Origin: a virus
Length of the DNA stretch: 64,000 nt
Reading direction: 5' to 3' (one strand)
Virus record (IMG/VR): IMGVR_UViG_3300046832_000578
A program made the position numbers and the translations under genes. Under the pieces are notes generated by a model that made no database searches, was not told the origin of the DNA, and saw only the letters and a list, made by a program, of their open reading frames with translations. Below, in pieces: positions 25,501 to 40,509 of the stretch. Within the stretch, counting starts at the first letter, position 1, and the number at the start of each line of letters is the position of its first letter.

Positions 25501-28500
25501 TACTAGAACAACAAACTGAATCTCTTGATATTATTGACTCTAATGGTGATAGTAGATTTAAAAATGGATTTATTGTAGATGGATTCACAGGACATAATAC
25601 TGGTGATAGCCTTTCACCAGACTATGTATGTTCTATTGATATGGAAAACGCAGAACTTCGTCCTTTCTACAGTCAACAAAATATTAATTTACTAGAAAAA
25701 AATTCTAGTGATGCTAATCGTCTATCAAGTAATTACAAGTTATATGGTGATGTTATCACCTTACCGCTTGATACAACGACTCCACATGTTAAATTAATAG
25801 AACAACCCTACGCTACTCGTTTAGAAAATATTAATCCATTTGCAGTATTTACTTTCTTGGGTGATGTTAAAATTAATCCATCTTCCGATGATTGGTTTGA
25901 AGTAGATCGTCGTCCAGATTTAGTTATTGATATTGAAGGTAATTATAGCACAATCAAAAATATTGCTGAGAAAAAAGGTGTTCTTGGAACTGTTTGGAAT
26001 GCATGGCAAAATACTTGGTCTGGAACAAGTGTAAATACTGGTCGCACAAAATTTACATTTGGTAATGAATGGGCATCTGGTTTTGGTGATGTTCGTTTAT
26101 CACGAGCAGAAGTTCAAGCTAGATTTGGTATTGCTGAGTGGGGTAATGCTCGCCAGATTACTGTAGAATCTACAGCGACACAAGTTGGTCAATCAAGAAC
26201 TGGTGTTAAAACATCATTAGTCACAAAAATTGATAGACAAGTAGTTGGAGATCGTGTACTACAAACTGCTGCAATTCCTTACATTAGATCTAGAAATGTT
26301 TTAATTCAAGTACAAAAACTAAAACCAAACACTCGTTTTTATCCGTTCTTTGATAATATTGATATTTCTTCTTATGTTACCCCTGCAACTAAAATGGTAT
26401 ACACTCCAGTTGCAGGTACATTTAATACTGACGTCAATGTAGGTGGTCTGGCATCAGGCTCTGCTCGTCGCATTAATGGGGATTCCCAAGTATGTTTAAA
26501 TCGTGGTGATGTTATTACTGGTGGAACATCTGGTGCGACTGCAGTTGTAGTCGGTAAAGATTTTAATGCAGATACCAATGCGTATGCATTATATGTTGTC
26601 AATATTATTGGAACATTTACTAGTACTGAAACCATTACTGGATCTGTTTCTGCAGCCACTGGTACTGTTGGTACAATAACAACTGGTTCTCTTGGTGGTA
26701 ATTTGGTCACCAACTTTAATGGTGACATACAGTTACTGTTTAACATTCCAAATACCGATGCGTTGAGATTCCGTTGCGGTACTCGTGAATTTAAACTTAT
26801 TGATACATCAACAGCTACTGGAGAATTTACTTCTCGTGGTCGTGGAAATTATCGTGCTGAAGGTATTTTAGAAACTCGTCAACAAACAGTTCACTCAGTT
26901 CGTAATGCAGAGTTAGTAGAAGAACAACTTTCAGAAAATCAAGTTATTATTCAAACATCAGATCGTATTGTTGCTGATACTGGCTGGTGGGATCCTCTTG
27001 CTCAAACATTTTTAATTGAGCAAAAGGGTGGTTGTTTCTTATCTAAAGTAGATATTTTCTTTGCAACTAAAGACGATAAAATTCCAGTTATGTTGGAAAT
27101 TCGTGAAGTTGTGAATGGGTATCCTGGAAAACGTGTTTTACCATTTAGTCGTGTCACATTAAAACCAGAAAATGTCAATCTTTCTGCTACTACTGTAACA
27201 CTTGATGGCGTATCAGTTAATAAGTATGATACTGCCACAACATTTACGTTCCCTTCTCCTGTATATGTTCAAGAGAATACAGAGTATGCAATTATATTGG
27301 CATCTGACTCAAATGCGTATAAAGTTTGGATCTCTCAAGTTGGTGAACAAATGCCAGGAAGTGCTCGTACTGTTTCTGAGCAACCATATCTTGGTTCTTT
27401 ATTTAAATCACAAAACGCATCTACTTGGACAGCTGATCAAACACAAGATTTAAAATTTGTTTTATATCGTGCTAAATTTAGAACTGATGTTGTGGCTAAT
27501 GTTGAATATGTAAATGATTTAATACCTCTTCAAGTATTAGGATTAGACCCATTTGAAGTAAGAAATGGTCAAACAAAAGTTCGTGTGTACCAAGATAATC
27601 ATGGTGTTCCATCTGGAACTCGTGTAACTATAAGTGGTGTTGCTGCAGCAGTAAATGGTGTTCCATCTGCACAACTAAATGCGACACATGTTATTAGTGA
27701 TGTAGATTTAGACTCTTATTGTATTACTGTAGCCACTGCTGCAACTTCCTCTGGTTATGGTGGTGGTTCTGGTATTAAAGCTACAAGAAATCTACAATAC
27801 GATGCAGTGCAACCTGCGGTTCAACTTCAAACATTCTCTGAAACTCAAGTCGATTTCGGAATTAAAACTACTACTGGTAAATCTGTAGATTCAACTTCGC
27901 AAACTCCATATGTAGAAGATGCAGCATTTAGTGGCATTCTTGCAAATGAAACTAACTATTTTACTGCTCCAAGAATGGTTGCCTCTGAGGTTAATGAAAC
28001 TAATTCATTGGGTGGGAACAAATCTGTAACTATGAATGCTACATTTAGTAGTACAAATAATGCATTGTCACCAATTCTTGATACACATCGTACAAGTATG
28101 TATTTGATTAGTAATAAAATTAATGAACCTTCCGAAACTAATATGAATGTGTCAGGACTTGATGATAATGTTATCTTAAGTGCTCTCTCTGGTGTTACTG
28201 TTTCAGGAAATCAAATTACTACTTCTACTAGAAATGCGCAATTTAAAACAGCAACTGTTGGTAAGTATCTTACAATCGCTGGGGCATCTTCTGGATCAAG
28301 CACTCGTTTAATTACTGCTGTTGCTTCAGATGGTAGTTCTATTACTTTCTCTGCAGCACCAGCTGCAATTACTGGTGACGCAACTTTAACTCAGCGTGAA
28401 CGATTCGTTGATGAGATCGCACCGATTGAGTCATCAACTTTTAGTAAATATGTAACTAAGACTGTCAGATTGGCAAATCCATCCAACTTCTTAAGAGTTC

Positions 28501-28781
28501 GTTTCGCTGTTAATTTACCAGCAGAAGCGTCAGTTGAAGTTTATTACAAAACTGCCGTTGTTGGATCTACTGCATCCTTTGATTCTGTGCCATATACTTT
28601 AATGACAGTAGATGCACCTATTCCTAACTTTAGTAATGGAACAGAAAGATTTGTTGATGCTAGTTTTTCTGAAAATGACATGGATGGATTCGATGCAATT
28701 AAGTTAAAATTAGTTATGAAATCAGATAATAGTTCTGAAGTTCCAAGAATTAAAGATCTTCGTGTAATAGCGTGTGCATAA
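22536..28781 (+). CDS. Large virion structural protein (DUF4815 / VrlC-like)
   Basis: N..PYYDDF...K.FYRIL.RP..AVQARELTQ.Q.ILQNQ; APGAHR; RYTMRDIG.LE.RI..LEYYT.L; DPLAQTF; GSLFKSQNASTW; P..KDLR.IA. Confidence 0.88.
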   Translation: MAINFNTEPYYDDFDETKKFYRILYRPAYAVQARELTQMQTILQNQISRFGDHVFKEGAMVIPGQAAIDTKIGYVKLEAAYASVNADTVVEEFVGLTIQNATGLQAEVIHYVKSSGADPATLFVRYKNSGTSTTEKTFAAGDVISDVDTTYTVQAAASSPSGVGSIATITLGVYYIKGHFVLVEPQTIVLDKYTNTPSYRIGLVAEEEIITAEEDETLYDNAQNSFNYAAPGAHRYSITTTLTKLTDSSTADTDFIELIRTENGQVKKETRRTEYSVLEQTFARRTYDESGNYTVKNFEIDVREYRNNNRGAWSASRVYLIGDVVTNSGNTYVAKNSGTSVATTPPTHTAGAVFDGPGNTGIQWEYNITPYYNRGVYSPANADNLATNQANEANLAIGLEPGKAYVQGYEIEKTAAEYVTVPKSRDFVQVENAVIPATVGNYVLVTNVNSLPPVDTFGEVTLYDRLTSSVGTAPASATAVGTARVRLLEWHNGTIGTQTAIYKLSLFDIKMNGTFDFARKVKSFFFNVSSDANLSFSADIEPVLTRLIGSATASSSTTITGNGTSFQTDFIVGDVVSFGGTKRRITAIASQVSMTVDSSTTITGSTIDRVSTTVYEPENTSLIFPLPYYAIKGVRSSALANDTIYTVYEKFTGTATVSSSPQLTVSTASGNMASAAETDNYIVVDNDSGAGGAIVLPTGITPSGSSVTFDLSSTYSGRSMMVIAAVNKSGATLTEKTKTLVASATVAFTTQATAQDSTLLLGFADGYRLVSVKMKSGTFASPGATYSIDISDRYDFDNGQRTTHYDQARLILKNSYAPPEAPIEITFDYFTHSTGDYFTVNSYPANVDYKAIPYYQGISLRDSIDFRPRINDAGTGFSSTGSSVSLVPKRGIDVVTDFTYYLARRSKIAVDLGGNFFNIDGISSLNPGEPLDPALGLVLYNLNLEPYTFGTNSNNVQVGRIDNKRYTMRDIGKLEKRIDNLEYYTSLSLLEQQTESLDIIDSNGDSRFKNGFIVDGFTGHNTGDSLSPDYVCSIDMENAELRPFYSQQNINLLEKNSSDANRLSSNYKLYGDVITLPLDTTTPHVKLIEQPYATRLENINPFAVFTFLGDVKINPSSDDWFEVDRRPDLVIDIEGNYSTIKNIAEKKGVLGTVWNAWQNTWSGTSVNTGRTKFTFGNEWASGFGDVRLSRAEVQARFGIAEWGNARQITVESTATQVGQSRTGVKTSLVTKIDRQVVGDRVLQTAAIPYIRSRNVLIQVQKLKPNTRFYPFFDNIDISSYVTPATKMVYTPVAGTFNTDVNVGGLASGSARRINGDSQVCLNRGDVITGGTSGATAVVVGKDFNADTNAYALYVVNIIGTFTSTETITGSVSAATGTVGTITTGSLGGNLVTNFNGDIQLLFNIPNTDALRFRCGTREFKLIDTSTATGEFTSRGRGNYRAEGILETRQQTVHSVRNAELVEEQLSENQVIIQTSDRIVADTGWWDPLAQTFLIEQKGGCFLSKVDIFFATKDDKIPVMLEIREVVNGYPGKRVLPFSRVTLKPENVNLSATTVTLDGVSVNKYDTATTFTFPSPVYVQENTEYAIILASDSNAYKVWISQVGEQMPGSARTVSEQPYLGSLFKSQNASTWTADQTQDLKFVLYRAKFRTDVVANVEYVNDLIPLQVLGLDPFEVRNGQTKVRVYQDNHGVPSGTRVTISGVAAAVNGVPSAQLNATHVISDVDLDSYCITVATAATSSGYGGGSGIKATRNLQYDAVQPAVQLQTFSETQVDFGIKTTTGKSVDSTSQTPYVEDAAFSGILANETNYFTAPRMVASEVNETNSLGGNKSVTMNATFSSTNNALSPILDTHRTSMYLISNKINEPSETNMNVSGLDDNVILSALSGVTVSGNQITTSTRNAQFKTATVGKYLTIAGASSGSSTRLITAVASDGSSITFSAAPAAITGDATLTQRERFVDEIAPIESSTFSKYVTKTVRLANPSNFLRVRFAVNLPAEASVEVYYKTAVVGSTASFDSVPYTLMTVDAPIPNFSNGTERFVDASFSENDMDGFDAIKLKLVMKSDNSSEVPRIKDLRVIACA

Positions 28782-29008
28782 TGGAATTTGTTAAAATACA
28801 AGATAGTGATAGTTTGGTTAGAGATTTGTCTAGTGGTGCAGTAATAAATACTAATACAACAGACTATCAAAACTATCTTGCTAGAAAAAATTCTTCTAAA
28901 GATATGAAACAACAAATTAAACAAAATGCTGATAAGATCAAACAGATTGAATCAGATGTGTCAGAGATTAAGCAATTGCTTATTACTCTTATTAATAAGG
29001 AACGATAA
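28781..29008 (+). CDS. Small conserved phage protein (coiled-coil)
   Basis: L.RD..SGA.INT...Y..Y motif, commonly found after VrlC-like genes; TAATG coupling. Confidence 0.75.
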   Translation: MEFVKIQDSDSLVRDLSSGAVINTNTTDYQNYLARKNSSKDMKQQIKQNADKIKQIESDVSEIKQLLITLINKER

Positions 29009-30222
29009 TGGCAGTAATCGTATTACGATCAGTTAAAGGCAGTCCGCTTACGATTGCAGAGGCAGATGCTAATTTTACCAATCTAAACACTGAGGTTGGA
29101 ACTAAACTAGATGCTGCAACTTATACTGCAGCAGATGTTTTAACTAAACTTCTTACTGTTGACGGATCAGGATCTGGTATAGATGCTGATTTACTAGATG
29201 GTAGAAACTCTTCAACATCAAATACGGTAAATACTGTTGTTCACAGAGATAGTTCTGGTAACTTCTCTGCAGGAACTATTACTGCAACTTTGGTTGGAAA
29301 TGTCACAGGAAACCTCACAGGTAATGTAACTGGAACTGTTTCTGGTAATGCAACCAATGTGGATGGTACTGTAGCAATAAACAATGGTGGCACAGGTGCT
29401 ACTACTGCAGCAAACGCTAGAACAAATCTAGGTTTGGACACTATGGCAACTCAAGCATCTAACAGTGTATCAATCACTGGTGGTTCTATTGCTGGAATTA
29501 CAGACTTAGCGATTGCTGATGGTGGCACTGGTGCGAGCACTGTTGCTCAAGCAAGAACAAATCTTGGATTGGTTCTTGGTTCAGATGTTCAACCATTTTC
29601 CAATAACTTAACAGCACTCGCTGCTATAACAACTCATGGTCTGTTTGTTAAAGATACTGCAGGTACAGCAATAACAAGAAGTATTGCAGGTAGCACTTCT
29701 ATAACAGTAACTAATGGTGATGCAGTTTCTGGCAATCCTACTATTGCATTATCAAGCACACCTGAAGTTTCTGCACTTATTAAAACAGGAACTAATGGCT
29801 CTGGTAATATCGGTCAAACTGGCAATCGTTTCGGCACTATTTTTGGAACTGCAACTACTGCTCAATATGCTGACTTGGCAGAAAAATATACAACTGATGT
29901 AGAGTATGAAGCAGGAACTGTATTGGCAGTAGCAATCAATGGTAATGCAGAAGCAACTCAAACATGGCAGTCTGGACAAAGAGTTCTTGGTGTTATTTCT
30001 ACTAATCCAGCATTTTTAATGAATGATGAAGCAGATGGTCAAGCCATTGCACTTCGTGGTCGTGTTCCAGTTAAAGTAGTTGGTCCAATTCGTAAAGGAC
30101 AACCACTAATCTGTAATCAAGATGGTAAGGGCATATATGGTGATACTAGCAATTCATTTGCAATAGCATTAGAAACAAATGACGATGTTAATGTTAAACT
30201 TGTTGAATGTGTAATTTTATAA
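29008..30222 (+). CDS. Tail fibre protein with C-terminal peptidase G2-like intramolecular chaperone
   Basis: DADLLDG; GGTGA.T...AR.NLGL repeats; AQYADLAEKY, GV.ST.PA.LMN, ALRGRVPVKV.G. Confidence 0.8.
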   Translation: MAVIVLRSVKGSPLTIAEADANFTNLNTEVGTKLDAATYTAADVLTKLLTVDGSGSGIDADLLDGRNSSTSNTVNTVVHRDSSGNFSAGTITATLVGNVTGNLTGNVTGTVSGNATNVDGTVAINNGGTGATTAANARTNLGLDTMATQASNSVSITGGSIAGITDLAIADGGTGASTVAQARTNLGLVLGSDVQPFSNNLTALAAITTHGLFVKDTAGTAITRSIAGSTSITVTNGDAVSGNPTIALSSTPEVSALIKTGTNGSGNIGQTGNRFGTIFGTATTAQYADLAEKYTTDVEYEAGTVLAVAINGNAEATQTWQSGQRVLGVISTNPAFLMNDEADGQAIALRGRVPVKVVGPIRKGQPLICNQDGKGIYGDTSNSFAIALETNDDVNVKLVECVIL

Positions 30223-30228
30223 TGCTTC

Positions 30229-31308
30229 ATGATAACTCAACCAATTGTCTTTCATAAGACAGATGTATTTCTTTCAGATATATTAATCCCAAAAGATTTG
30301 GTGGTCTATCTTAAGACCACCGAAACTTGTCAACTTAATTGCCAACACTGTTTTACAAATGGTGTCAACGGTAAAAAGATATATTTTAATCCCCAAAGCA
30401 CAGTAGAGTGGTTCGAACGACTCCACGAGGAATGCCCATCTTTTAATGGTGGGAATATTACATTTCATGGAGGAGAACCATTCCTTGCTCCGCTAGATGA
30501 CATGTACTATGTATGGGATAAGGTATCAAAACTATTTCCTAATCTTAACTGGTCTTGTTCTACTAATCTCTGTTTTAATCTAACTGAAGACCACATGAAG
30601 TTTTTCAAAACTGTTCTAAAGAATGGATTCTGCACTTCATGGGATAAAGGTATTCGATTTGAAAATGATAAACAAGAAAACCTCTGGCGAAAGAATCTGC
30701 AAACTGTGGTAGATGCTGGGCATAATATCACTCTTAATATTAGTCTTAATAAACAACTAATGGAGATGGATACTACTGAGTTAGTTCTATGGCTCAATAC
30801 TCTAGGTGTTAATTGGGTGCAGTTTGAACGATTAACTCACGATGGTTCGGCTTTGGTAAACACTCATATATTTCCTGCAAATAAAGATCAAGACGACTGG
30901 TTTGTTAGAATGCACGAAACCTATCAGACAATAAAACCTAAATATAAAGATGTCCTACTGGAAGGTGTCTATTCCTCTATAACTAAAGGAATACATGGTG
31001 GAGTTCGTTGTAGAGATTGTGAACAGAAAATCTTCACAATTAATGCCGATGGAACTGTGGCAGGATGTCCAAATGCTGCAGTGGGTAATGGTTTTGGAGA
31101 TATATTTCAACCCATTAGAAGTCTACTCTCTGCCAGAGGAAGAATAAATAACATTACATGCGAGATAGAAAGAGATCCTCGTTGCTATACCTGTGATGTA
31201 TTTGATATCTGTAATAGCGACTGTCACCAATTGAAGTGGCAGGAAGATGTCTGTGCAGCACCGAAAACACTAATGCAAAGGTTAAAGAATGACAACAGCT
31301 GGCGATAA
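30229..31308 (+). CDS. Radical SAM/SPASM-domain enzyme
   Basis: CQLNCQHC (CxxxCxxC), FHGGEP; C-terminal C..C...GCP...C..C.....C...C cysteine set. Confidence 0.92.
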   Translation: MITQPIVFHKTDVFLSDILIPKDLVVYLKTTETCQLNCQHCFTNGVNGKKIYFNPQSTVEWFERLHEECPSFNGGNITFHGGEPFLAPLDDMYYVWDKVSKLFPNLNWSCSTNLCFNLTEDHMKFFKTVLKNGFCTSWDKGIRFENDKQENLWRKNLQTVVDAGHNITLNISLNKQLMEMDTTELVLWLNTLGVNWVQFERLTHDGSALVNTHIFPANKDQDDWFVRMHETYQTIKPKYKDVLLEGVYSSITKGIHGGVRCRDCEQKIFTINADGTVAGCPNAAVGNGFGDIFQPIRSLLSARGRINNITCEIERDPRCYTCDVFDICNSDCHQLKWQEDVCAAPKTLMQRLKNDNSWR

Positions 31309-31819
31309 TATAACAAAAGCAAATATTGTTGCTTCAATGGAATCTATTAGAAATACCTATAATGCAGGTATTGTGTGGCACAGTGGCAACCAACCATTTC
31401 AAACAGATATTACTGGTGGTAATGATAGTGGCTATGCAACAGGTTCTTTTAGTTCTGATATTTCTGACGCTAATGTTACTGCTTCTACAATAGTGGCTAA
31501 CTTCAGAGGATATGCTAATTTACTATCCAGAATTAGAAGTGTTCAATTAAAGAAATGGTATCAGATACAAGGTGATGTTAGAGCACAGTTAAACAGTGAT
31601 CAAACTAACATAACTAATTTAAAAGCTGATTATGCTGCTGATATGAGCACAACTGGATCAAGTGTTCCTTCTTCTTCAACTAATGTAGATGCTTCTGATT
31701 TAGATGATTTTGTAAATTCTTTATCTACAGCTATTAATAATCACAGAACAAATACTGTTCTTATTGAAGAATTTTACTGCCATAGCAATTGCCATGGATC
31801 TTGTCACGGAAGTTTATAA
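31289..31819 (+). CDS. Hypothetical protein with C-terminal CHxx triple repeat (candidate radical SAM substrate)
   Basis: Ends CHSNCHGSCHGSL; overlaps the upstream rSAM gene. Confidence 0.75.
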   Translation: MTTAGDNITKANIVASMESIRNTYNAGIVWHSGNQPFQTDITGGNDSGYATGSFSSDISDANVTASTIVANFRGYANLLSRIRSVQLKKWYQIQGDVRAQLNSDQTNITNLKADYAADMSTTGSSVPSSSTNVDASDLDDFVNSLSTAINNHRTNTVLIEEFYCHSNCHGSCHGSL

Positions 31820-32577
31820 TGTATAGTGTTCCATTTGATTCTGTTACCTTAAAAAGTATTATCACAGGAGAATTAGATTCTCCTAAAATTGATTATGCAA
31901 ATTCAACTATTAAAGGTAAAAATTTTATTACCTATTTTAGCAATTTAAAATATAGAACAGTTGATATTGATTTCACAGATGTTTCTATTGACGAGAAGGA
32001 AACTCTATTACTCGAATATATTAAACACAATTCCACTGCAAATATTGAGCAATTATTGGCCAGTGTTATTAAAAGTCTATTCTATCAAAAAGGATATAAT
32101 TTATCTTTAGTTGATAATTCGAAATTAGACATTGAATTTTTACAAAAAAGTATTTTAACCAATTCTGAGATAGAGCACTTTGTTAAAGAAAACGAAGAAT
32201 TGATTAAAGCACTTTGTGACATCTTAGATGGAACTTTACTATATGCAATTAAAAATTTAAATGCTTATAAAGAAGAACTTGGAGATTTTATAACAAATAA
32301 CATAGTAGAAGAAAAACAAGAAATAGGAAAAACATTTGTTAATCTATTTCAAAACGAAACTTTTAATTCTCACTATTATGCATCAATTCCAAAATTTGAT
32401 AAAATTAAATATTTTGATTTTTACTTTGATAGACCAATCTATTCAGGTAAGACACTTATGACTTATATAACAGGTGGTTGTATTATTTTCCCTCTGTTAA
32501 AGATGATATTAGATAATTCATTTACTCCACAACAATTACAAAATATTTACGAAGAGACAAATGTTACATCTCTATAA
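31819..32577 (+). CDS. Hypothetical protein in rSAM cassette
   Basis: TAATG coupling gives the likely start MYSVPF; long ORF. Confidence 0.75.
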   Translation: MYSVPFDSVTLKSIITGELDSPKIDYANSTIKGKNFITYFSNLKYRTVDIDFTDVSIDEKETLLLEYIKHNSTANIEQLLASVIKSLFYQKGYNLSLVDNSKLDIEFLQKSILTNSEIEHFVKENEELIKALCDILDGTLLYAIKNLNAYKEELGDFITNNIVEEKQEIGKTFVNLFQNETFNSHYYASIPKFDKIKYFDFYFDRPIYSGKTLMTYITGGCIIFPLLKMILDNSFTPQQLQNIYEETNVTSL

Positions 32578-33445
32578 TTCTTGTTATGCATATCCATATG
32601 CAATGTTCGATCCATCTTCTGCAGATTATATTGTAGTTGGCGACAAACACGCAATTTTAGGTGCGGGAGTTGAGAATAGTTTTTATTATAATAATGTGTT
32701 CATACATCAGTGTTATGCTCGTTTTAAAACATACGAAGATTTTATTAATAGTAATCTACTATTACCTGCATTTAGCAACAAACAAAAATTTATCATCTAT
32801 TGTGACAACGAAACTCTAATAAAATTATTTACTGCTAAACTTAAATCACATATTCAGTTTTTTGATAATAGTTTGTATTTTGATCTTGCTAAACTATTTG
32901 GTGTTCGTTTAAAAATTAAATCAAAACTAATTGATTCTTCCAATAAAGAAATCATTAACGATCTTGGTGATACTTTTATAGAACTAAATTCAATACCAAA
33001 TGTTAGTAAATTTCCGATAGATCCTTATTGGGTTTGGGAGAATGCTGGAATTGAATGGAAAGTTGCAAATAGAAATTGTGGTGTTCCAAACAGTCACATT
33101 AACATATTAAACGATCTTGTGAATCGTTATGTTTATTCGTTTTTTGATGAAGCACAAGAAAGTTATCTTTCAAGAAAAACTGGTGGCTGGGCAGTAGATG
33201 TAAATAATCAGCGATTTAGTACAGTAGCTTCCATGAAAGAATTATACATGGAAATGCGAAAAGAAATAGCGTTGTTTACAGATCCATTAATTTTACAATT
33301 TTTTGAAACTGGGGTCACCGAAGAATTGTTAAATGATCCAAAATTTTTATTACTGGTATCCAATGATAAAGTAGATACTTGGTTGATTAGATGGTTAATG
33401 AGATTACCACAATCAAAAATCACACAGTTAGGTTTAATAGCATGA
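32561..33445 (+). CDS. Hypothetical protein in rSAM cassette (IYCD motif)
   Basis: Long ORF overlapping both neighbours. Confidence 0.75.
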   Translation: MLHLYNSCYAYPYAMFDPSSADYIVVGDKHAILGAGVENSFYYNNVFIHQCYARFKTYEDFINSNLLLPAFSNKQKFIIYCDNETLIKLFTAKLKSHIQFFDNSLYFDLAKLFGVRLKIKSKLIDSSNKEIINDLGDTFIELNSIPNVSKFPIDPYWVWENAGIEWKVANRNCGVPNSHINILNDLVNRYVYSFFDEAQESYLSRKTGGWAVDVNNQRFSTVASMKELYMEMRKEIALFTDPLILQFFETGVTEELLNDPKFLLLVSNDKVDTWLIRWLMRLPQSKITQLGLIA

Positions 33446-34413
33446 TATATCTTTTCGATAATTGTTATCTATCAACTACAAATAGTATTGTTGAAAAATC
33501 TAAACAGATTTGGATAGGGTCTCATGCAAAATTAGATCGAGATCCAATGCTCAATCTTACATATGATATTTTACATTCATATAAAGAGGTCAACGATGAT
33601 GAGTTAGAAGAATTATTTAATGAAATTCATGAAGATTATTCGAATATTAAAACTGTAATTTATTGTGATGTTGAGAACTTTATGTATGTATACTCATACT
33701 TCTTTAATGGTGTATTAGAAGAATCTGCTGTTAAAGAATTATACTCATTCGATAGACTTAAAGAAAATTATAGAATTGGTGTATTCGCAACTAGAGATGT
33801 AGAGTTTGTAGATCTACCAAAGACTTTAAAGGGAACAGATACTGCATCTATCTTTTCTTCTTTATTGACTACAACAAGAATAGAAATTGCATTTGCAAAC
33901 GCTATGAGAGGTAATGAAGATGCCTTACAATTCTGCGTGGATCGTGCCACTGAAATGTATGATGGATCTCCTGGATTTTGGTCTAAAGATGCTGAACAAA
34001 ATTTACCAGCATTACTTTCAGATGAAGAATTTACAATTGCAAATTTAACTAATAATGAGTTTATTGATTCTTTTGTGGAACAGTTTGAGATCGATGAAGT
34101 ATTTCCAAATAAAATTGTAGATAAAATTAAAGAACATTTTGATTTTGATTATCTAGAACATTACTTTACTGTAATGAATAATACCACAGAATGGAAACCA
34201 ATGTGGGATCAAGATGCAAATATTTCTAAACAAAAATTTGTTGAGACTTACCTTTTAAATAAAGAGTTTGCGTCTGGCAATCAATTATTATTTCCTAACT
34301 ATTCTAATTTTGATTCAATTAATCCAATTTTCTGGAACACCATTCTCCATAAAAATACAGCATGGCTTGACAAGTATAAAGTGAAAAATGGAACTTATAA
34401 TCAAACCAACTGA
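33442..34413 (+). CDS. Hypothetical protein in rSAM cassette (IYCD motif; probable paralogue of the preceding gene)
   Basis: ATGA coupling gives the start MIYLFDNCY. Confidence 0.75.
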   Translation: MIYLFDNCYLSTTNSIVEKSKQIWIGSHAKLDRDPMLNLTYDILHSYKEVNDDELEELFNEIHEDYSNIKTVIYCDVENFMYVYSYFFNGVLEESAVKELYSFDRLKENYRIGVFATRDVEFVDLPKTLKGTDTASIFSSLLTTTRIEIAFANAMRGNEDALQFCVDRATEMYDGSPGFWSKDAEQNLPALLSDEEFTIANLTNNEFIDSFVEQFEIDEVFPNKIVDKIKEHFDFDYLEHYFTVMNNTTEWKPMWDQDANISKQKFVETYLLNKEFASGNQLLFPNYSNFDSINPIFWNTILHKNTAWLDKYKVKNGTYNQTN

Positions 34414-35434
34414 GTTATGTAATTTTAAGTGCACCTTTTGTTCATCAACCAAAATCGTAGAAGACAAAGCAAGCACTCTTGATCATCAGCACATTTTTGA
34501 TTTTTTAAAAAGATTTCCAAACACAAATAGTATTATTGTCAATGGCGGAGATCCGCTAATGATGAAACCAGAATACTACTTCACTATACTTGACTATATT
34601 GAAGAACACAATCTCCCAACAAACATAAGTTTCACCACAAATCTCTGGGCATTCTATAAGAAACCAGAGATGTGGACACCTTTATTCAAACACCCAAGAG
34701 TTGCAGTTACAACAAGTTTTCAATATGGATTTGGTCGTGTAATATCAGGAACCAGAGTCTATACTGAAAAAGACTTTTGGAATGTTAGCGATTTGTTCCT
34801 AAAAGAAGTTGGTTATCGTCCAGGATTTATTGCAGTTATCTCTGAAGAAAATGAGAAACATGCAATTCGTCATGTGGAGTTAGCCAAGAAAATGGATGTC
34901 CAATGTAAGTTAAACTATGCCATGGCATCTGGAGAACAATCATCACCATATCGCCTAAGTAAAATATACGAAATGTATATTGAAGTTTACGAACGAGGAC
35001 TTCATCCGTGGGAGTTTAATACTAAACAGATGATGACTCGTCTGAATAATATCGCTAATGTGTGTCCTCAAGCAAGAAATTGTGATGACCATATTAGAGC
35101 AATGAATCCAGAGGGTGATTATTACTCTTGTGGAGCGATGGGTGACGATAAAGAATATCCAATTAACTTTGTAAAGGAAGTTAAAGAAGGTGGTTTTATA
35201 ACTCCACTGCAAAACGCACCAGAGTTGTTTTCATTGAAAGATGAATGTGTTACTTGTCCGATGTTTAGTATTTGCAACGGATGTAAGAAAACGATTAAAG
35301 ATTTGAAACAGCATGGAATGGTTGAAGAGCATTGTTCTCATATGAAACAGTTGGCTCCAAGAATTATACAAATTAACAGTGAAACAGATTATGTCGAAGC
35401 AACTCAAAGAATCCATAAGAATCTCGTTTCTTAA
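34388..35434 (+). CDS. Radical SAM/SPASM-domain enzyme
   Basis: IIKPTELCNFKCTFC, GGDPL; CP....C...YSCG...C..C.MF.ICNGC...C. Confidence 0.92.
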   Translation: MELIIKPTELCNFKCTFCSSTKIVEDKASTLDHQHIFDFLKRFPNTNSIIVNGGDPLMMKPEYYFTILDYIEEHNLPTNISFTTNLWAFYKKPEMWTPLFKHPRVAVTTSFQYGFGRVISGTRVYTEKDFWNVSDLFLKEVGYRPGFIAVISEENEKHAIRHVELAKKMDVQCKLNYAMASGEQSSPYRLSKIYEMYIEVYERGLHPWEFNTKQMMTRLNNIANVCPQARNCDDHIRAMNPEGDYYSCGAMGDDKEYPINFVKEVKEGGFITPLQNAPELFSLKDECVTCPMFSICNGCKKTIKDLKQHGMVEEHCSHMKQLAPRIIQINSETDYVEATQRIHKNLVS

Positions 35435-37268
35435 TATTGATTTAAGAGTTCCTATTGTAAGGTTGCCGATTAACTGGCTTAACTTTAAGAACTATTATAT
35501 TAAACACGGTAAGTATGCGTCACATGTAAAATGGGAAGAACCAATTCTAAATTTAGAAGATTGGTCATTTGAAGATATCGTTGACTACTACGATAAACAA
35601 GATTCTGACATTTATGCATTTTCTAGTTATCTTTGGAGTCACATGGCTATTATGGCTGTGGCAAAGGAACTAAAGGAAAGAAACCCAAAAAGAATTATTG
35701 TGCTTGGTGGTCCACATCTTAATATTACGCATAATAAAATTGATTGGTTCTTTAAGAATAAATTTATAGATGCTATTTGTGAACCCACCAGTTATGGTGA
35801 ATGGTTTATTAATGACATTCTTGATCAATTTGTTGAAGGTGATATAGACTGGAAAGAAGTTTCATTTTCAATCTATAAAACTGGTCGTGGTAAAAGCCCA
35901 AATAAAATTGACTTTGAGTTTCCTGGAAGTTTAATTGCAGGTAATGAAGACATTTTATTTAAATGTAAAAATATTGCACTGGAGCGAGGTGTTCCATTAG
36001 TTCTACCCATTGAGTTAACTCGTGGATGTCCCTACGAATGTGTGTTCTGCGAATGGGGTGGTGGAATTGGTGGTAAGGTTATCCGTAAATCTATGAACTT
36101 TATTAAAGAAGATCTAGATTGGATACCTCAGGTTGGTATTGATCAAATTCAAATTCTTGATGCCAACTATGGTATTTACAAAGAAGATGAAGATGTCTCA
36201 AAATATATTGAAGAAATAAAATCGTTTTCTGGTCTTCCAACTCATGTTGAGATTTATGGTATGACCAAGTCTAAACAAGAACGAAGATGGGCAACAATTG
36301 AACCACTGGCAAGAGCAGGTGTGGTTGAACGATATAAATTAAGTTTACAAACTCTTAACAACGAGGTTCTTCGTAACATTAAACGAACTGATATTCCTCG
36401 TGAAAAAGACTTTGAGTTTGCCAAGTATCTATTCGATGAATATGGTATTCGAGCAGACTTTGAATTTATGATGGGTCTTCCAGGTTATACTCAAAACGAC
36501 TTTTATGACGAAGTTGATATTCAGTATGAGTATGGTTATGGGTTGGAACGATACCTTTGGTTATTTCTACCAGACTCTCCTGCATACGATCCTGAATATA
36601 TTAAAAAGTTTAATATTAAAACTGAAAAGATTTGCATTGGTAAATCTAAAATGAATAGTTATTCTTACGATGACATTAATATCTTTAAAGATTACCATAT
36701 ATCATCTGATCCTAAATTTTTATCTGATGTAGAGTTTGTGGTCGAAGCAGATGGTTACACAAGAAAAGACTTTACGGAGTTTTTCTTTATGAATCATTGG
36801 ATACTTGAAAATGTTTCCATGATTGACTTTACAGATACGATAGTTAAGCACAATATTGCAATCGGTAGGCTAGAAAAACCTTCTTTAATTTTTAGGAAAA
36901 TTTATGAAGGTATTACCTCTCCCAGTGAAAATAAATATGTATTGGCAATGCAAGATCTTAATAGTCAGATGTATGATTTAATGATGGGTAACAGGAAAGA
37001 GATCGTAGATTATAAACAATTTAATTTACCGTTTACTGATGTATCTGTTGATTTTTCTTACATTTACAAAGTGTGTGTTTTAGTATTTGAAGAGGATTAT
37101 ATTAAATTTTTAATAGGTATTGGTAAAGAACTTAATCTTGAGATCCCAGAAAATATAGTGGAGCAGTTTAAAGAAAAATTGAATAGTTATAAGAATACTT
37201 TTTCACCAAAATATGATAAATTCTATCAGATAAGAACATACTATGAACGAGTTATTAGAGAAGGTTAA
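35379..37268 (+). CDS. Cobalamin-binding radical SAM enzyme (class B methyltransferase-like)
   Basis: N-terminal FSSY.W...LGGPH B12-binding-like domain; E..RGCPYECVFC.W; DAN.G; .GLPG.T; start may be 35391. Confidence 0.85.
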   Translation: MKQIMSKQLKESIRISFLNIDLRVPIVRLPINWLNFKNYYIKHGKYASHVKWEEPILNLEDWSFEDIVDYYDKQDSDIYAFSSYLWSHMAIMAVAKELKERNPKRIIVLGGPHLNITHNKIDWFFKNKFIDAICEPTSYGEWFINDILDQFVEGDIDWKEVSFSIYKTGRGKSPNKIDFEFPGSLIAGNEDILFKCKNIALERGVPLVLPIELTRGCPYECVFCEWGGGIGGKVIRKSMNFIKEDLDWIPQVGIDQIQILDANYGIYKEDEDVSKYIEEIKSFSGLPTHVEIYGMTKSKQERRWATIEPLARAGVVERYKLSLQTLNNEVLRNIKRTDIPREKDFEFAKYLFDEYGIRADFEFMMGLPGYTQNDFYDEVDIQYEYGYGLERYLWLFLPDSPAYDPEYIKKFNIKTEKICIGKSKMNSYSYDDINIFKDYHISSDPKFLSDVEFVVEADGYTRKDFTEFFFMNHWILENVSMIDFTDTIVKHNIAIGRLEKPSLIFRKIYEGITSPSENKYVLAMQDLNSQMYDLMMGNRKEIVDYKQFNLPFTDVSVDFSYIYKVCVLVFEEDYIKFLIGIGKELNLEIPENIVEQFKEKLNSYKNTFSPKYDKFYQIRTYYERVIREG

Positions 37269-37938
37269 AACTATACCACATCTTCCTCTACTATTCTCAT
37301 TTGATGCTAAGCGAATAGAGAATGAGATTAGAGCGATGCCGTTTCCTCTAATGAGTTATAATGCAAATATACAAAAAGGATATAATCATAGCCCAGATGG
37401 TTGGAATAATCTTTCTTTGTATAGCTACGATGGAAGTATGTTTTGTGACACGAATGAAGGCGATGGTGGTAATGCTTTACTAGAAAGATTTGGTAAATTT
37501 CAAAAAACTGGATTGACAGAATATTTACCCTATACCTATGAGGTTTTAGAGGCTCTTGGTGCAGGAAAGTCTTTATGTAGAATTGAGGAAGTTATGCCGA
37601 GCACCATTATAGGTTGGCATAGCCATGTGTTAGAGTTTCATCAACCAGAGAACATATTGATAGTTCAGCTTCCTATTTGTATTCCAGAAGGATTTAAACA
37701 TTCGGTGGTGGATTATCGACAGTATAGAGGATCAGACTTTAATATAAAACCGATTGTTTCATATGACTCTAAATATATCGAAGGTGTTCCTTATATTTTT
37801 AACTCATATCATTATCACAATGTGTTTAATCATGGATCTACTCCAGCCCTTATGATAAGGTTTTTTGTGGATATAGATGATTTAAACCTAATAGAACCTG
37901 CAATAAATTGTTATTCTGGAGACCTAATCGTAGGTTGA
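37243..37938 (+). CDS. Asp/Asn beta-hydroxylase-like Fe(II)/2OG oxygenase
   Basis: W...SL, PYT, R.....P...IGWHSH, QLPI, FNS...H.V.N cupin pattern. Confidence 0.65.
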   Translation: MNELLEKVKTIPHLPLLFSFDAKRIENEIRAMPFPLMSYNANIQKGYNHSPDGWNNLSLYSYDGSMFCDTNEGDGGNALLERFGKFQKTGLTEYLPYTYEVLEALGAGKSLCRIEEVMPSTIIGWHSHVLEFHQPENILIVQLPICIPEGFKHSVVDYRQYRGSDFNIKPIVSYDSKYIEGVPYIFNSYHYHNVFNHGSTPALMIRFFVDIDDLNLIEPAINCYSGDLIVG

Positions 37939-37952
37939 CTAAATAATAAATA
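37938..37952 (+). promoter_or_regulatory. Tandem late promoter cores (ACTAAATA ATAAATA)
   Basis: Upstream of the fibre gene at 37986. Confidence 0.6.
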
Positions 37953-37985
37953 ACAAGTATGCTAAGAAACCATATAGGAATATAA

Positions 37986-38882
37986 ATGGCTGCGATTACA
38001 ACTAGAGAAACAGGAACTACTGGTGTCGGTGGAGTTACCAGAAAAAACCTGCCTTTGACGAATGGTGAGATTGACACTAATTTTATCAATCTAAACACTG
38101 ATAAGTTAGAAGCATCTTACACAGGAAATACTAATCTTGTTACTCTGGGAACAGTTACAACAGGAACTTGGAATGCGACTACAATTGCTACTACTCATGG
38201 TGGTACTGGTTTAACTTCCTTTACTTCTGGTGGTGCGGTTTATGCGACTAGCACCTCTGCTCTTACTACTGGAACATTACCTGTAGCTTCTGGTGGCACT
38301 GGAATCACAACTGCTCCGTCTAGTGGTACTCTTTTAATTGGAACATCTGCTGGTGGGTATTCTTCTGCCACATTGACTGGAACTGCAAATAGAGTCACAG
38401 TAACTAATTCCTCTGGTGGTATTACTTTATCTGCTCCGCAGGATATCGCAACAACTTCAAACCCACAGTTTGGTTCATTGGGTATTGGAACTGCTGCATC
38501 AGGAACTGCTGGTGAGATTCGAGCCACTAATCAGATTACATCATACTACTCTGATGAACGATTAAAAGAAGACATCGTAGAAATTACAGATGCCTTAGAA
38601 AAGGTTATGGCACTTCGTGGTGTAACCTACAAACCAAACTCTATTGCAGAGTCATTGGGTTACAAAAAACAAAATGAAGTTGGTGTAATTGCTCAAGATG
38701 TAGAAAAAGTTCTACCTGAAGCAGTGAAACCAGCACCATTTGATATTATGTTATTTGAAAATACAGAGATATCAAGATCTGGAGAGAACTACAAAACTGT
38801 CCAGTACGAAAAATTAGTTCCATTGCTAATCGAAGCAATCAAAGAACTAAATAAAGAAGTTCAGCAGCTAAAAGGGAAATAA
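37986..38882 (+). CDS. Tail fibre protein with peptidase S74 intramolecular chaperone
   Basis: YYSDERLKEDI..I..AL.KV..LRGV.Y, GVIAQ.V..VLPEAV, Y..V.YEKLVPLLIEAIKEL. Confidence 0.88.
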   Translation: MAAITTRETGTTGVGGVTRKNLPLTNGEIDTNFINLNTDKLEASYTGNTNLVTLGTVTTGTWNATTIATTHGGTGLTSFTSGGAVYATSTSALTTGTLPVASGGTGITTAPSSGTLLIGTSAGGYSSATLTGTANRVTVTNSSGGITLSAPQDIATTSNPQFGSLGIGTAASGTAGEIRATNQITSYYSDERLKEDIVEITDALEKVMALRGVTYKPNSIAESLGYKKQNEVGVIAQDVEKVLPEAVKPAPFDIMLFENTEISRSGENYKTVQYEKLVPLLIEAIKELNKEVQQLKGK

Positions 38883-38965
38883 TTAGCTGCACAACCTAGA
38901 TTGGGGAATCTAGGTTTTCAAATGTTTAGGGGATTAAACATCATGCATAAAAAGGGGAATTCAAT

Positions 38966-40093
38966 ATGCCTTCTACAATCTTAGGCGAACACGCACTCAC
39001 AATTCCAACTGGAACAACCGCAGAAAGACCAGGATCTCCAGCTGCTGGTATGATGAGATTTAATACCAGCACTGGATATCTTGAATACTATAATGTAGGA
39101 ACAAGTTCTTGGTTGGGAATTGGTCAATTATCAGTTTCTGGAGGAACTGGAGCTACATATACCGATGGTGGAACAACTTATGGTGTTGCAGCATTCACAT
39201 CATCTGGATCTTTAAGTATTATTAATGGAGGAACTCTTGATCTTGTGGCTGTCGGTGGTGGTGGTGGTGGTGGTAGCTGGGTTCCAGGTGGTGGTGGAGC
39301 AGGTGGTTTAGTTTCTCTAACAGGACAATATGTTTCTGGTGGAACATATTCTGCAGTCGTTGGTACTGGTGGACCTGGACAGCTGAATCCAGGTAATTAT
39401 GCTTGGCAAACTGGCATCCGATATGGTGGTGATTCATATATTGCTCTAGGTTCTAGTTATGTTATTACTGCAATGGGTGGTGGTCTTGGTGGATCTTATG
39501 ACGGTAATGGCGGTGATGCCAACGCATTAGCTCAAAATGGTGGTTCTGGTGGAGGTAGGGGAATAAATACTGCTAGCAATGGAACTGGATTACAAGTATC
39601 AGGATCTGGCGTAACGACTTCTCCTAATGGAAATACAGTACCTGCAACATCATTAACTGGCGGTTTTGGTAATAATGGTGGAGGTAATGGTTCTAGTAAT
39701 GAAGGTTACGGACAATTATCTGGAGGTGGTGCTGGTGGTGCTCCTGCTGGATATGGTTCTACTAATGGTGGAATGAATGGTAGACAAGTAGGATGGGTTG
39801 GAACATTTAATCAATATGGCACCAATACATCGAATTCAACTTCAGGCACTCGTGGATATTTCTGTGGTGGCGGTGGACAAGGAAATCACTCTGGTGGACC
39901 AGTTGGTTCTGGCGGATATGGTGGCGGTGGAACTGGATCATCTGCCATGAACTCATCAACTCCGCAAGCCCAACAGCCTGGACAAGCCAATACTGGCGGT
40001 GGCGGTGGTGGTGGTGGTATGTCTGGTGGCCAAGCATCAAGAGGTGGAACTGGTGGGTCTGGTTTGCTTTTAGTTAGATATATCGCTTCATAA
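38966..40093 (+). CDS. Glycine-rich virion-associated protein
   Basis: P.GTTA.RP...G..RFN N-motif; F.SSG, VGGGGGG, A.GGG.G, NTGGGGGG, GG.GGSG....RY. Confidence 0.8.
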   Translation: MPSTILGEHALTIPTGTTAERPGSPAAGMMRFNTSTGYLEYYNVGTSSWLGIGQLSVSGGTGATYTDGGTTYGVAAFTSSGSLSIINGGTLDLVAVGGGGGGGSWVPGGGGAGGLVSLTGQYVSGGTYSAVVGTGGPGQLNPGNYAWQTGIRYGGDSYIALGSSYVITAMGGGLGGSYDGNGGDANALAQNGGSGGGRGINTASNGTGLQVSGSGVTTSPNGNTVPATSLTGGFGNNGGGNGSSNEGYGQLSGGGAGGAPAGYGSTNGGMNGRQVGWVGTFNQYGTNTSNSTSGTRGYFCGGGGQGNHSGGPVGSGGYGGGGTGSSAMNSSTPQAQQPGQANTGGGGGGGGMSGGQASRGGTGGSGLLLVRYIAS

Positions 40094-40107
40094 TAGGAAA
40101 AAATAAC

Positions 40108-40482
40108 ATGGCACACTTTGCTAGAATAGATAAAAATAATATAGTAACAGAAGTAATAGTTGTAGAGCAAGAAGTTATTAATTCTGGAGTATTTGGCGAG
40201 CCTGAACAATGGGTACAAACTTCATATAATACATATGGTGGTGTTCATGTTCATGGTGGCACACCTTTTAGAAAAAACTTTGCTGGTAAAGGTATGATTT
40301 GGGACGCAGATCGTGATGCTTTTTATGCACCTAAGCCATTTGCTTCTTGGGTTTTAAATGAAAGCACATGTTATTGGGAACCACCAATAGCAAGTCCAGG
40401 AGATACCGTTGATGAAGATGGTACTGTAAATTCTCATAAATGGGATGAAACTACACAAACATGGATACCCTTTAGTTACTAA
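40108..40482 (+). CDS. Conserved phage hypothetical protein
   Basis: MAHFA.I...N.V..V.V, W.QTSYN, RKN.AG.G..D...DAF..P.P..SW.L.E....WE.P. Confidence 0.8.
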   Translation: MAHFARIDKNNIVTEVIVVEQEVINSGVFGEPEQWVQTSYNTYGGVHVHGGTPFRKNFAGKGMIWDADRDAFYAPKPFASWVLNESTCYWEPPIASPGDTVDEDGTVNSHKWDETTQTWIPFSY

Positions 40483-40487
40483 AATTA

Positions 40488-40509
40488 AAAACCACCTTTG
40501 GGTGGTTTT
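40488..40509 (+). terminator. Intrinsic terminator
   Basis: AAAACCACC-TTTG-GGTGGTTTT hairpin. Confidence 0.7.

Follow-up and report, generated by a model that had tools for sequence, protein, structure and literature searches.

The cassette and its Cys-His-tailed protein

We analyzed a 64,000-nucleotide stretch of viral DNA (IMG/VR record IMGVR_UViG_3300046832_000578), hereafter called the window, and a gene cassette within it that encodes a 176-amino-acid protein with a repeated Cys-His tail, here named CHx, beside radical S-adenosylmethionine (SAM) enzymes. The window spans the part of a T4-like myovirus genome that encodes baseplate, fibres and head, including gp5-, gp6-, gp7- and gp8-like baseplate proteins, a large terminase and a portal. 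All genes of the cassette are on the + strand. The first is fibA (29008..30222), a tail-fibre-like protein that matches PHROG tail-fibre families and, weakly, the Peptidase_G2 intramolecular chaperone. After a 6-base gap follows rSAM1 (30229..31308), a radical SAM enzyme with a full SPASM domain and Pfam matches to Fer4_12 and Radical_SAM, whose end overlaps the start of CHx (31289..31819) by 20 bases. The stop codon of CHx and the start codon of unk1 share the sequence TAATG (31817-31821). The unk1 protein (31819..32577; 252 amino acids; phrog_20767, with no known function) and rSAM2 (34388..35434), a second radical SAM/SPASM-type enzyme (Radical_SAM, 1.1e-9), complete a conserved core of four genes.

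CHx consists of a compact alpha/beta body (residues 1-163) and a tail, CHSN-CHGS-CHGS-L (31778..31816), that is built from three C-H-small-S/N units and is the proposed site of modification. The tail is encoded by the codons TGC CAT AGC AAT TGC CAT GGA TCT TGT CAC GGA AGT TTA, followed by TAA at 31817-31819. The protein contains exactly three cysteines (164, 168 and 172), all within its last 13 residues; translation of the open reading frame at 31289-31819 thus confirms the period-4 Cys-His repeat, free of any earlier Cys, that the initial annotation had described. The start codon is backed by the homologues, every one of which begins MTTAGDNITKA.

The remaining genes of the cassette are less widely kept. 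The unk2 (32561..33445; 294 amino acids) and unk3 (33391..34413; 340 amino acids) genes are conserved in the window's clade only, and they diverge fast, being 44-51% identical where rSAM1 is 97% identical. Two accessory genes follow rSAM2: a B12-binding radical SAM enzyme of the KedN5-like C-methyltransferase class (35379..37268), found in some clades only, and an Asp/Asn beta-hydroxylase-like cupin (37243..37938), whose match to PF05118 (3.9e-4) is below the cut-off. The cassette is closed by fibB (37986..38882), a tail-fibre protein with a C-terminal Peptidase_S74 chaperone domain. In pPa_SNUABM_DT01, SURPRISE13 and the metagenomic locus L028, the module is likewise flanked by cupin or 2-oxoglutarate oxygenase genes, so that the hydroxylases may belong to a wider tailoring island. 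No NCBIfam family was matched by unk1, unk2 or unk3 at E ≤ 0.01, and a search of the anti-phage defence models of PADLOC-DB 2.0 returned only weak matches to the radical SAM core (pVip, PDC-M51A), with no match to CHx or unk1-3.

Promoter and terminator scans of positions 28000-40500 gave results not above the shuffled expectation, and the T4 late-promoter word TATAAATA is absent from the cassette. Co-transcription of the cassette is therefore a proposal that follows from the way its genes abut or overlap.

Conservation of the C-terminal tail

A word-indexed search returned 279 relatives of CHx, and the tail was checked in the 120 that were listed, each at least 67% identical. All 120 keep CHS[NS]CH[GSNA]SCHGS[LI], with the exception of one incomplete entry, and none carries a Cys outside the tail. 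When 120 sequences with 21-70% identity to the query are aligned, no columns are invariant other than C164, H165, C168 and H169; H173 and R83 are conserved at ≥90%. The conservation on which the initial annotation had staked its proposal therefore holds, as the motif is retained down to ~25% identity. At the tail positions, the codons vary synonymously (TGT/TGC and CAT/CAC), and Ser is encoded by both AGY and TCN; consequently, selection acts on the amino acids of the tail, and not on the DNA.

A profile search across 1.84 billion cluster representatives (E ≤ 0.001) matched 305 clusters, and CHxxCHxxCH is present in 126 of the best 150. Across 433 units, the tail unit is C-H-[S 47%, G 23%, A/N/T]-[S 76%, N 18%, A 4%]. 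Of 148 proteins, 119 have three units, 22 have two, 5 have four and 2 have six. Proteins with two units mostly continue with H-S-S, which is the third unit minus its Cys, and the retention of His-Ser-Ser in these Cys-less units argues that H-x-S matters by itself. Outside the window's clade, R-x-R-R comes after the units and forms the extreme C-terminus (RGRR in 69 of the 148 proteins); in the window's clade, the tail instead closes with a single L or I. In these alignments, the motif lies far beyond chance.

Several variant forms were observed. P0143, P0151, P0153, P0158 and ~20 other representatives end in CHSSCHSN-HSS-RNRR, where the third Cys is gone and His-Ser-Ser is retained. P0168 and P0225 have six-unit tails. 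Expanded or fused forms include P0223 (227 amino acids, 14 Cys), L063 and the 453-residue P0200, which bears a CHx domain at its C-terminus, and two tail arrays can occur in one protein. We set aside three other explanations of the tail. A prohead-protease cleavage site at the preceding LIE/E was dropped since distant members do not conserve its Glu, a formylglycine motif of the sulfatase-like type C-x-x-x-R since no Arg follows the tail in the window's clade, and a C-terminal sorting signal since a hydrophobic segment is lacking.

Predicted structure of the CHx body

An AlphaFold2 model of CHx, calculated from a 120-sequence alignment, is confident, with a predicted local distance difference test score (pLDDT) of 89.1 and a predicted template modeling score (pTM) of 0.83. 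It is a compact alpha/beta domain in which three helices pack on a sheet with a long hairpin (82-92 and 100-111), and its last strand (157-164) runs directly into a tail with a pLDDT of ~50-70. The initial annotation had offered, as a second option, a metal-binding tip in a trimeric fibre. The gene is linked to fibres and its homologue in phage Atu_ph07 is associated with the virion, but the monomer is predicted to be a compact alpha/beta domain with a loose tail rather than a fibre, and the sequence of CHx contains no HxH motif.

The fold matched nothing that we compared it to. The body, in which the initial annotation had seen segments like those of phage structural proteins, has no Pfam match and no NCBIfam family at E ≤ 0.01, a Foldseek search of the PDB with both CHx models found no match at E ≤ 0.001, and VIA-align, run with a first and weaker model, gave a best Z of 4.7 and matched no solved fold. 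An ESM Atlas feature search yielded no usable match for CHx and, for unk1, only leads below 0.9. A prediction of the complex between rSAM1 and CHx, with three 4Fe-4S clusters and SAM, scored 0.01 against a mark of 0.32 and neither supports nor opposes binding.

Linkage to radical SAM genes in viruses

We found that the tail is tightly linked to the two radical SAM genes. The order fibA-rSAM1-CHx occurs in 25 of 25 IMG/VR contigs that carry a close relative and, where these contigs reach, unk1-unk2-unk3-rSAM2-B12 radical SAM-hydroxylase-fibB follow. Distant metagenomic members, with CHx at 27-33% identity and on contigs of up to 237 kb, retain rSAM1, CHx, unk1 and rSAM2, and this conserved core is usually located downstream of a fibre gene. 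Where the CHx body is 27-33% identical, the enzymes are 39-67% identical (rSAM2 48-67% in distant loci); the body evolves as fast as the fibres, and the enzymes barely change. In loci from viruses, jumbo phages and Bdellovibrionota, the gene directly downstream of CHx is a homologue of unk1.

Isolated phages show the same association. Orthologues of rSAM1 (E ≤ 1e-20) are present in 15 of 50,697 isolated-phage records, and CHx homologues are present in the same 15, namely Atu_ph07, Phosso, RSL2, RSF1, the FLC and RsoM3USA phages, SURPRISE13 and pPa_SNUABM_DT01. In the three isolated jumbo phages that we inspected, CHx comes straight after rSAM1: the homologue in pPa_SNUABM_DT01 ends in ...CHTSCHTSCHSARGRR, gp170 of Atu_ph07 ends in ...CHSSCHASCHNSRSRR and ORF068 of RSL2 ends in ...CHSSCHTSCHGSRGRR. 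Thus, the proposed linkage of the motif to SPASM-type radical SAM genes was borne out, both in the 25 relatives and in the 15 phage records, and the motif is not equally common in phages that lack these genes, as it is absent from the isolated phages without rSAM1 among the 50,697 records. Megablast of the window's cassette against isolated phages found no match, nor did tblastn against the same phages with P0179, a typical metagenomic member.

We then used a DNA pattern, (CHxx)3-xx-RxRR-stop, which matched >120 viral stretches, and fetched 80 of these loci. By hidden Markov model, all 80 hold true CHx members, and rSAM1 or rSAM2 is inside the fetched piece in 63. Among the 48 loci with at least 3.5 kb of upstream sequence, rSAM1 is directly upstream in 36, a gene with the fibA-type domain is upstream in 36, and one or the other is found in all 48. 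The latter gene, carrying the fibA C-terminal domain (~residues 271-404), lies on the same strand within 4 kb upstream in 36 of the 48 IMG/VR loci, and this domain may be the partner of CHx. Short CHx genes in tandem pairs were seen at L091:2523-3286, L125:1111-1874, L134:6766-7583 and ~12 more IMG/VR loci, where rSAM1 is several kb off or outside the piece.

The module in predatory bacteria

The same DNA pattern was run on prokaryote contigs, with one genome per species, and matched 47 stretches. Eight of these were low-complexity CHCH/RRRR chance matches and were discarded, leaving ~39 true CHx open reading frames, of which ~28 are in Bdellovibrionota assemblies, including contigs of 1.29, 2.45 and 2.84 Mb. 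Most of the true members have homologues of rSAM1, rSAM2 or unk1 inside their 8-kb pieces.

Three chromosomal regions of Bdellovibrionota, each 20 kb long, contain rSAM1, CHx, unk1 and rSAM2 together with further CxxxCxxC proteins (L088:2765-15807, on contig 1 of G002, 1.29 Mb; L089:6263-12973; L090:43-14012). The cassettes are flanked by housekeeping genes, for a serine dehydratase, an Mrp/NUBPL ATPase, a DinG-like helicase, RecN and a major facilitator superfamily transporter, and no phage-particle domain was found among the proteins scanned in the three regions. The L088 cassette contains a fibre gene with an S74 chaperone, similar to fibB, and another cassette adjoins a 2355-residue protein with Big_2 and RCC1 repeats. 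Of 301 Bdellovibrionota genomes sampled, 10 carry the CHx family, four of them being seeds. The chromosomal cassettes and this count indicate that the module is sporadic in Bdellovibrionota and is not confined to viruses. Published work on the fibre adhesins of Bdellovibrio makes no mention of radical SAM enzymes (PMC10769870).

The radical SAM enzymes

In an alignment of 31 sequences, the invariant residues of rSAM1 include C34, C38 and C41, as well as the SPASM residues C264-x10-G275-x4-C280, C319-x2-C322-x5-C328-x3-C332 and C342, which conform to CxxxCxxC and to the pattern of seven Cys that SPASM domains use for two auxiliary clusters. Against a cut-off of 27, the SPASM model (TIGR04085) gives 23.4 bits for rSAM1 and 24.9 bits for rSAM2, so that the assignment of rSAM2 to SPASM is borderline. 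The rSAM1 family comprises 1041 clusters.

For both enzymes, the best NCBIfam matches are peptide cross-linking maturases, at 20-53 bits against cut-offs of 340-650. For rSAM1 these are DarE, DarW, DynA and PapB, over the full length and all far below cut-off, and for rSAM2 it is DynA (3e-14; residues 4-311); the scores against cut-offs are 33.2 versus 650 for DarE, 52.7 versus 450 for DynA and 20 versus 340 for PapB. Among other maturases, YhhB scores 19.4 bits versus 445 and QhpD 17 versus 453, and AmcB matches over the N-terminal half only. Against HxsC (TIGR03977), rSAM2 scores 31.8 bits versus 267.9, over residues 8-91 in the N-terminal radical SAM core only, and neither HxsB nor HxsC is among the 24 NCBIfam matches of rSAM1. 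A sequence search of solved structures found none for rSAM1 and, for rSAM2, only the N-terminal core of an anaerobic sulfatase maturase. From these matches, rSAM1 and rSAM2 are new families within the class of peptide cross-linking maturases. The lead towards the Hxs systems, which the initial annotation drew from the motif, survives in part: H-x-S/N is present in every unit, but the proteins match no Hxs family model.

Virion association in phage Atu_ph07

One CHx homologue has been detected in phage particles. Attai et al. 2018 analyzed particles of the Agrobacterium phage Atu_ph07 that were purified with polyethylene glycol (PEG), using gel slicing and electrospray ionization tandem mass spectrometry (PMC6102473). 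In their Table S5, Gp170 is a 'hypothetical protein' of 31.89 kDa that was identified by 8 unique peptides, with 35% coverage, in slices 1-9. The computed mass of the Atu_ph07 homologue of CHx is also 31.89 kDa and, because the masses of gp170, gp176, gp177 and gp180 all match, the numbering in the paper is the RefSeq numbering. The C-terminal tryptic peptide of gp170 is ...CHSSCHASCHNSR.

The gel position of gp170 differs from that of proteins of its size. It peaks in slice 1, at the top of the gel, where proteins of ~75-139 kDa peak, whereas ~30-kDa proteins peak in slice 8; in the whole of Table S5, it is the sole protein below 50 kDa with at least 3 peptides that peaks in slice 1 (PMC6102473). 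The annotated tail fibres of Atu_ph07 also migrate above their monomer size. Table S5 has no entry for the radical SAM proteins (gp165, gp168 and gp171) or for gp169, the homologue of unk1. Proteins gp176, gp177 and gp181 are in the virion list along with gp170, and gp180, a 'T4-like structural protein' encoded by a 13.3-kb gene just upstream of the module (L032), is not; it may be too large to enter the gel.

A proposed modified tail and its alternatives

We propose, with a probability of about 0.55, that CHx is a protein-sized radical SAM substrate that is built into the virion together with the fibres. According to this proposal, CHx would be expressed late, from a block in which its gene and those of the fibres abut or overlap, and three C-H-small-S/N units at its C-terminus would be presented by the compact alpha/beta body as a flexible tail. 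Both rSAM1 and rSAM2 would install covalent changes in each unit, perhaps with unk1 as a helper, and would thereby cross-link the tail, as the initial annotation had suggested for its two SPASM enzymes. The bonds could be carbon links from His to Ser/Asn, as in the His triceptides and HxsA, and/or thioethers of the Cys. By analogy, two chemistries are plausible: a cyclophane from His C2 to C-beta on H-x-X, and a Cys thioether of the ranthipeptide type. Further decoration, in the window's clade, would come from the B12-radical SAM enzyme and the hydroxylase. Once modified, the tail would act as a rigid, perhaps metal-binding, rivet or tip that holds CHx in a very stable fibre or baseplate complex. 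What the data show is that the tail is conserved, that its gene is linked to the enzymes and to fibre genes, and that one homologue is associated with virions; the modification, its bonds and its role are inferred. The proposal also draws on the slower change of the enzymes than of the CHx body, on the enzyme class to which rSAM1 and rSAM2 come closest, and on the precedents of HxsA, HaaB and HtkB.

Several observations weigh against this proposal. An invariant array of Cys and His is also expected of a plain metal site, and the modification itself is read from sequence and genomic context. Both enzymes are far below every NCBIfam cut-off, and consequently no reaction can be transferred to them. 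A sub-family of short CHx proteins (124-140 amino acids), encoded in tandem pairs after a fibA-type gene, is not beside rSAM1; on five contigs with such pairs, rSAM1 is found elsewhere in three (E ~1e-135) and is missing from two, which are 11% and 22% complete. The particles of Atu_ph07 were purified with PEG, and the same Table S5 lists RecA-like, single-stranded DNA-binding, terminase and ribonucleotide reductase proteins (PMC6102473); therefore, virion association is not proof of a structural role. In addition, the loading buffer is described without a reducing agent (PMC6102473), and disulfides formed through the three Cys could consequently explain the signal in the top slice without any enzyme.

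The alternative that survives best, though we consider it unlikely, is that the tail stays unmodified and serves a structural or adaptor protein as a metal site (Zn, Fe, Ni, Cu or Fe-S), and that the radical SAM enzymes act on the fibres or on a small molecule. Regularly spaced Cys and His are classical metal ligands, the low order of the tail in the model (pLDDT ~50-70) would be expected of a site that folds on binding, and CHx is both fibre-linked and, in Atu_ph07, virion-associated. Phage fibres and spikes often hold metal ions via His motifs, as in T4 gp37 and gp12. However, a metal site leaves unexplained why position 4 is Ser or Asn in 94% of the units and why H-S-S is kept after loss of the third Cys. 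Nor does it account for the one-to-one co-occurrence and adjacency with rSAM1 across T4-like phages, jumbo phages and Bdellovibrionota.

It is improbable that CHx is a classical precursor of a peptide of the ribosomally synthesized, post-translationally modified class (RiPP), whose 163-residue body would serve as the leader and whose tail would be cleaved and released as a small bioactive peptide, for instance with an antibiotic, signalling or anti-defence role. The gene does sit beside radical SAM/SPASM maturases and encodes a Cys-rich C-terminal core, and the best family matches of the enzymes are RiPP maturases. Yet the pattern of conservation is the reverse of that in most RiPPs, with an invariant core and a fast-evolving 'leader'; the body is a well-folded domain in the model; no protease or exporter was recognized in the core module; and particles yielded peptides that span 35% of the Atu_ph07 homologue.

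Least probable of all is that CHx is a helper of the enzymes rather than their substrate, either an Fe-S or electron carrier or a scaffold that presents another protein: Fe-S clusters can be held by Cys and His ligands, a phage with many radical SAM genes might depend on a cluster supply of its own and CHx sits beside rSAM1, but the CHx homologue is abundant in Atu_ph07 particles where the enzymes were not found, no Fe-S carrier family was matched, and a body that evolves as fast as fibres while the enzymes barely change would be odd for an obligate partner.

The proposal that CHx is a radical SAM substrate would give a concrete candidate target to a large set of radical SAM enzymes (>1000 enzyme clusters and ~300 target clusters). 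Radical SAM genes are conspicuous in jumbo, Campylobacter and marine T4-like phages, where they have been listed or suggested to serve DNA repair or host metabolism (PMC2853527, PMC8541153, PMC5468394, PMC11898562). If the tail is modified, this would apparently be the first case of a phage particle protein cross-linked by an enzymatic radical reaction, and its Cys-His-Ser chemistry would probably be new. Culturable models exist in Atu_ph07, RSL2/RSF1, the Burkholderia FLC phages and pPa_SNUABM_DT01.

Comparison with known systems

We now compare the module to known systems, beginning with those that share its setting. The T4 gp38 adhesin and the Tfa-type assembly proteins are encoded by small fibre accessory genes right after a fibre gene. 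CHx resembles them in its position downstream of a fibre gene and in a small body that diverges as fast as the fibres, but there is no similarity in sequence or predicted fold, and those proteins have no dedicated modifying enzymes. In the QhpC/QhpD system, the gamma subunit of quinohemoprotein amine dehydrogenase receives Cys thioethers from a SPASM enzyme. As is proposed for CHx, a protein subunit, and not a peptide, is modified there and stays in a stable complex; the sequences are unrelated, and both the motif and the biology are different.

Closer in chemistry are the peptide systems. The ranthipeptides and SCIFF peptides (PapB and CteB type) share regularly spaced Cys in a C-terminal core beside SPASM enzymes, and the darobactin and dynobactin systems supply DarE and DynA, which are among the best full-length matches of rSAM1 and rSAM2. 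In all of these, the precursors have ~45-60 amino acids, whereas CHx has 176 and a folded body. In contrast to the ranthipeptide and darobactin systems, rSAM1 and rSAM2 have no N-terminal domain before the radical SAM core, and the core of CHx is invariant. In the His-type triceptides, HaaB and HtkB make links from His C2 to C-beta on H-x-X motifs (PMC11499958). These systems (HaaB, HtkB, YhhB; PMC11499958) use a His-x-X motif, which is repeated two or three times in some precursors, and a SPASM enzyme, and the aromatic-X-X pattern of triceptides is present in every CHx unit as His-x-Ser/Asn. Triceptides are, however, short leader-core peptides in which the Cys and the folded body of CHx have no counterpart, and rSAM1 and rSAM2 are not members of the enzyme family.

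The closest likeness in overall design is to the HXS anti-phage system, in which HxsB and HxsC, together with the small protein HxsD, mature HxsA, a 214-residue protein that contains five His-x-Ser repeats (Li et al., Nat Commun 2026, PMC13128918). HxsA acquires a covalent change of +8 Da in one SHRSS unit, which requires its His and last Ser, and mature HxsA blocks the entry of phage DNA in the periplasm (PMC13128918). The two systems are alike in their four-gene core, which comprises two radical SAM enzymes, one accessory protein and a target of protein size that carries tandem His-x-Ser, and in both targets basic residues are found around the repeats. The differences are also clear. No HxsA, HxsB or HxsD (TIGR03976) model was matched in the cassette, and HxsC was matched over the N-terminal core only. 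Each CHx unit opens with an invariant Cys, the array stands at the extreme C-terminus and the protein has no peptidoglycan-binding domain. Finally, HXS belongs to a defence island of Gammaproteobacteria, whereas CHx is found in phages and predatory bacteria and is linked to fibres.

This comparison leads us to a further idea, which we put forward as a tentative one and think more likely wrong than right: the module may be the attackers' counterpart of HXS, in which phages with large genomes and Bdellovibrionota would rely on two radical SAM enzymes dedicated to this task to forge a new cross-linked Cys/His/Ser structure, possibly metal-binding, on a fibre-associated C-terminus that acts at the envelope of the prey or host. 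Such a structure could be a covalent rivet for a fibre complex that is stable in sodium dodecyl sulfate, or a part that makes contact with the envelope or periplasm as penetration and entry of DNA take place. The location of the module beside fibre and adhesin genes in predatory bacteria points to a shared tool against Gram-negative cells, one that would mirror the HXS defence.

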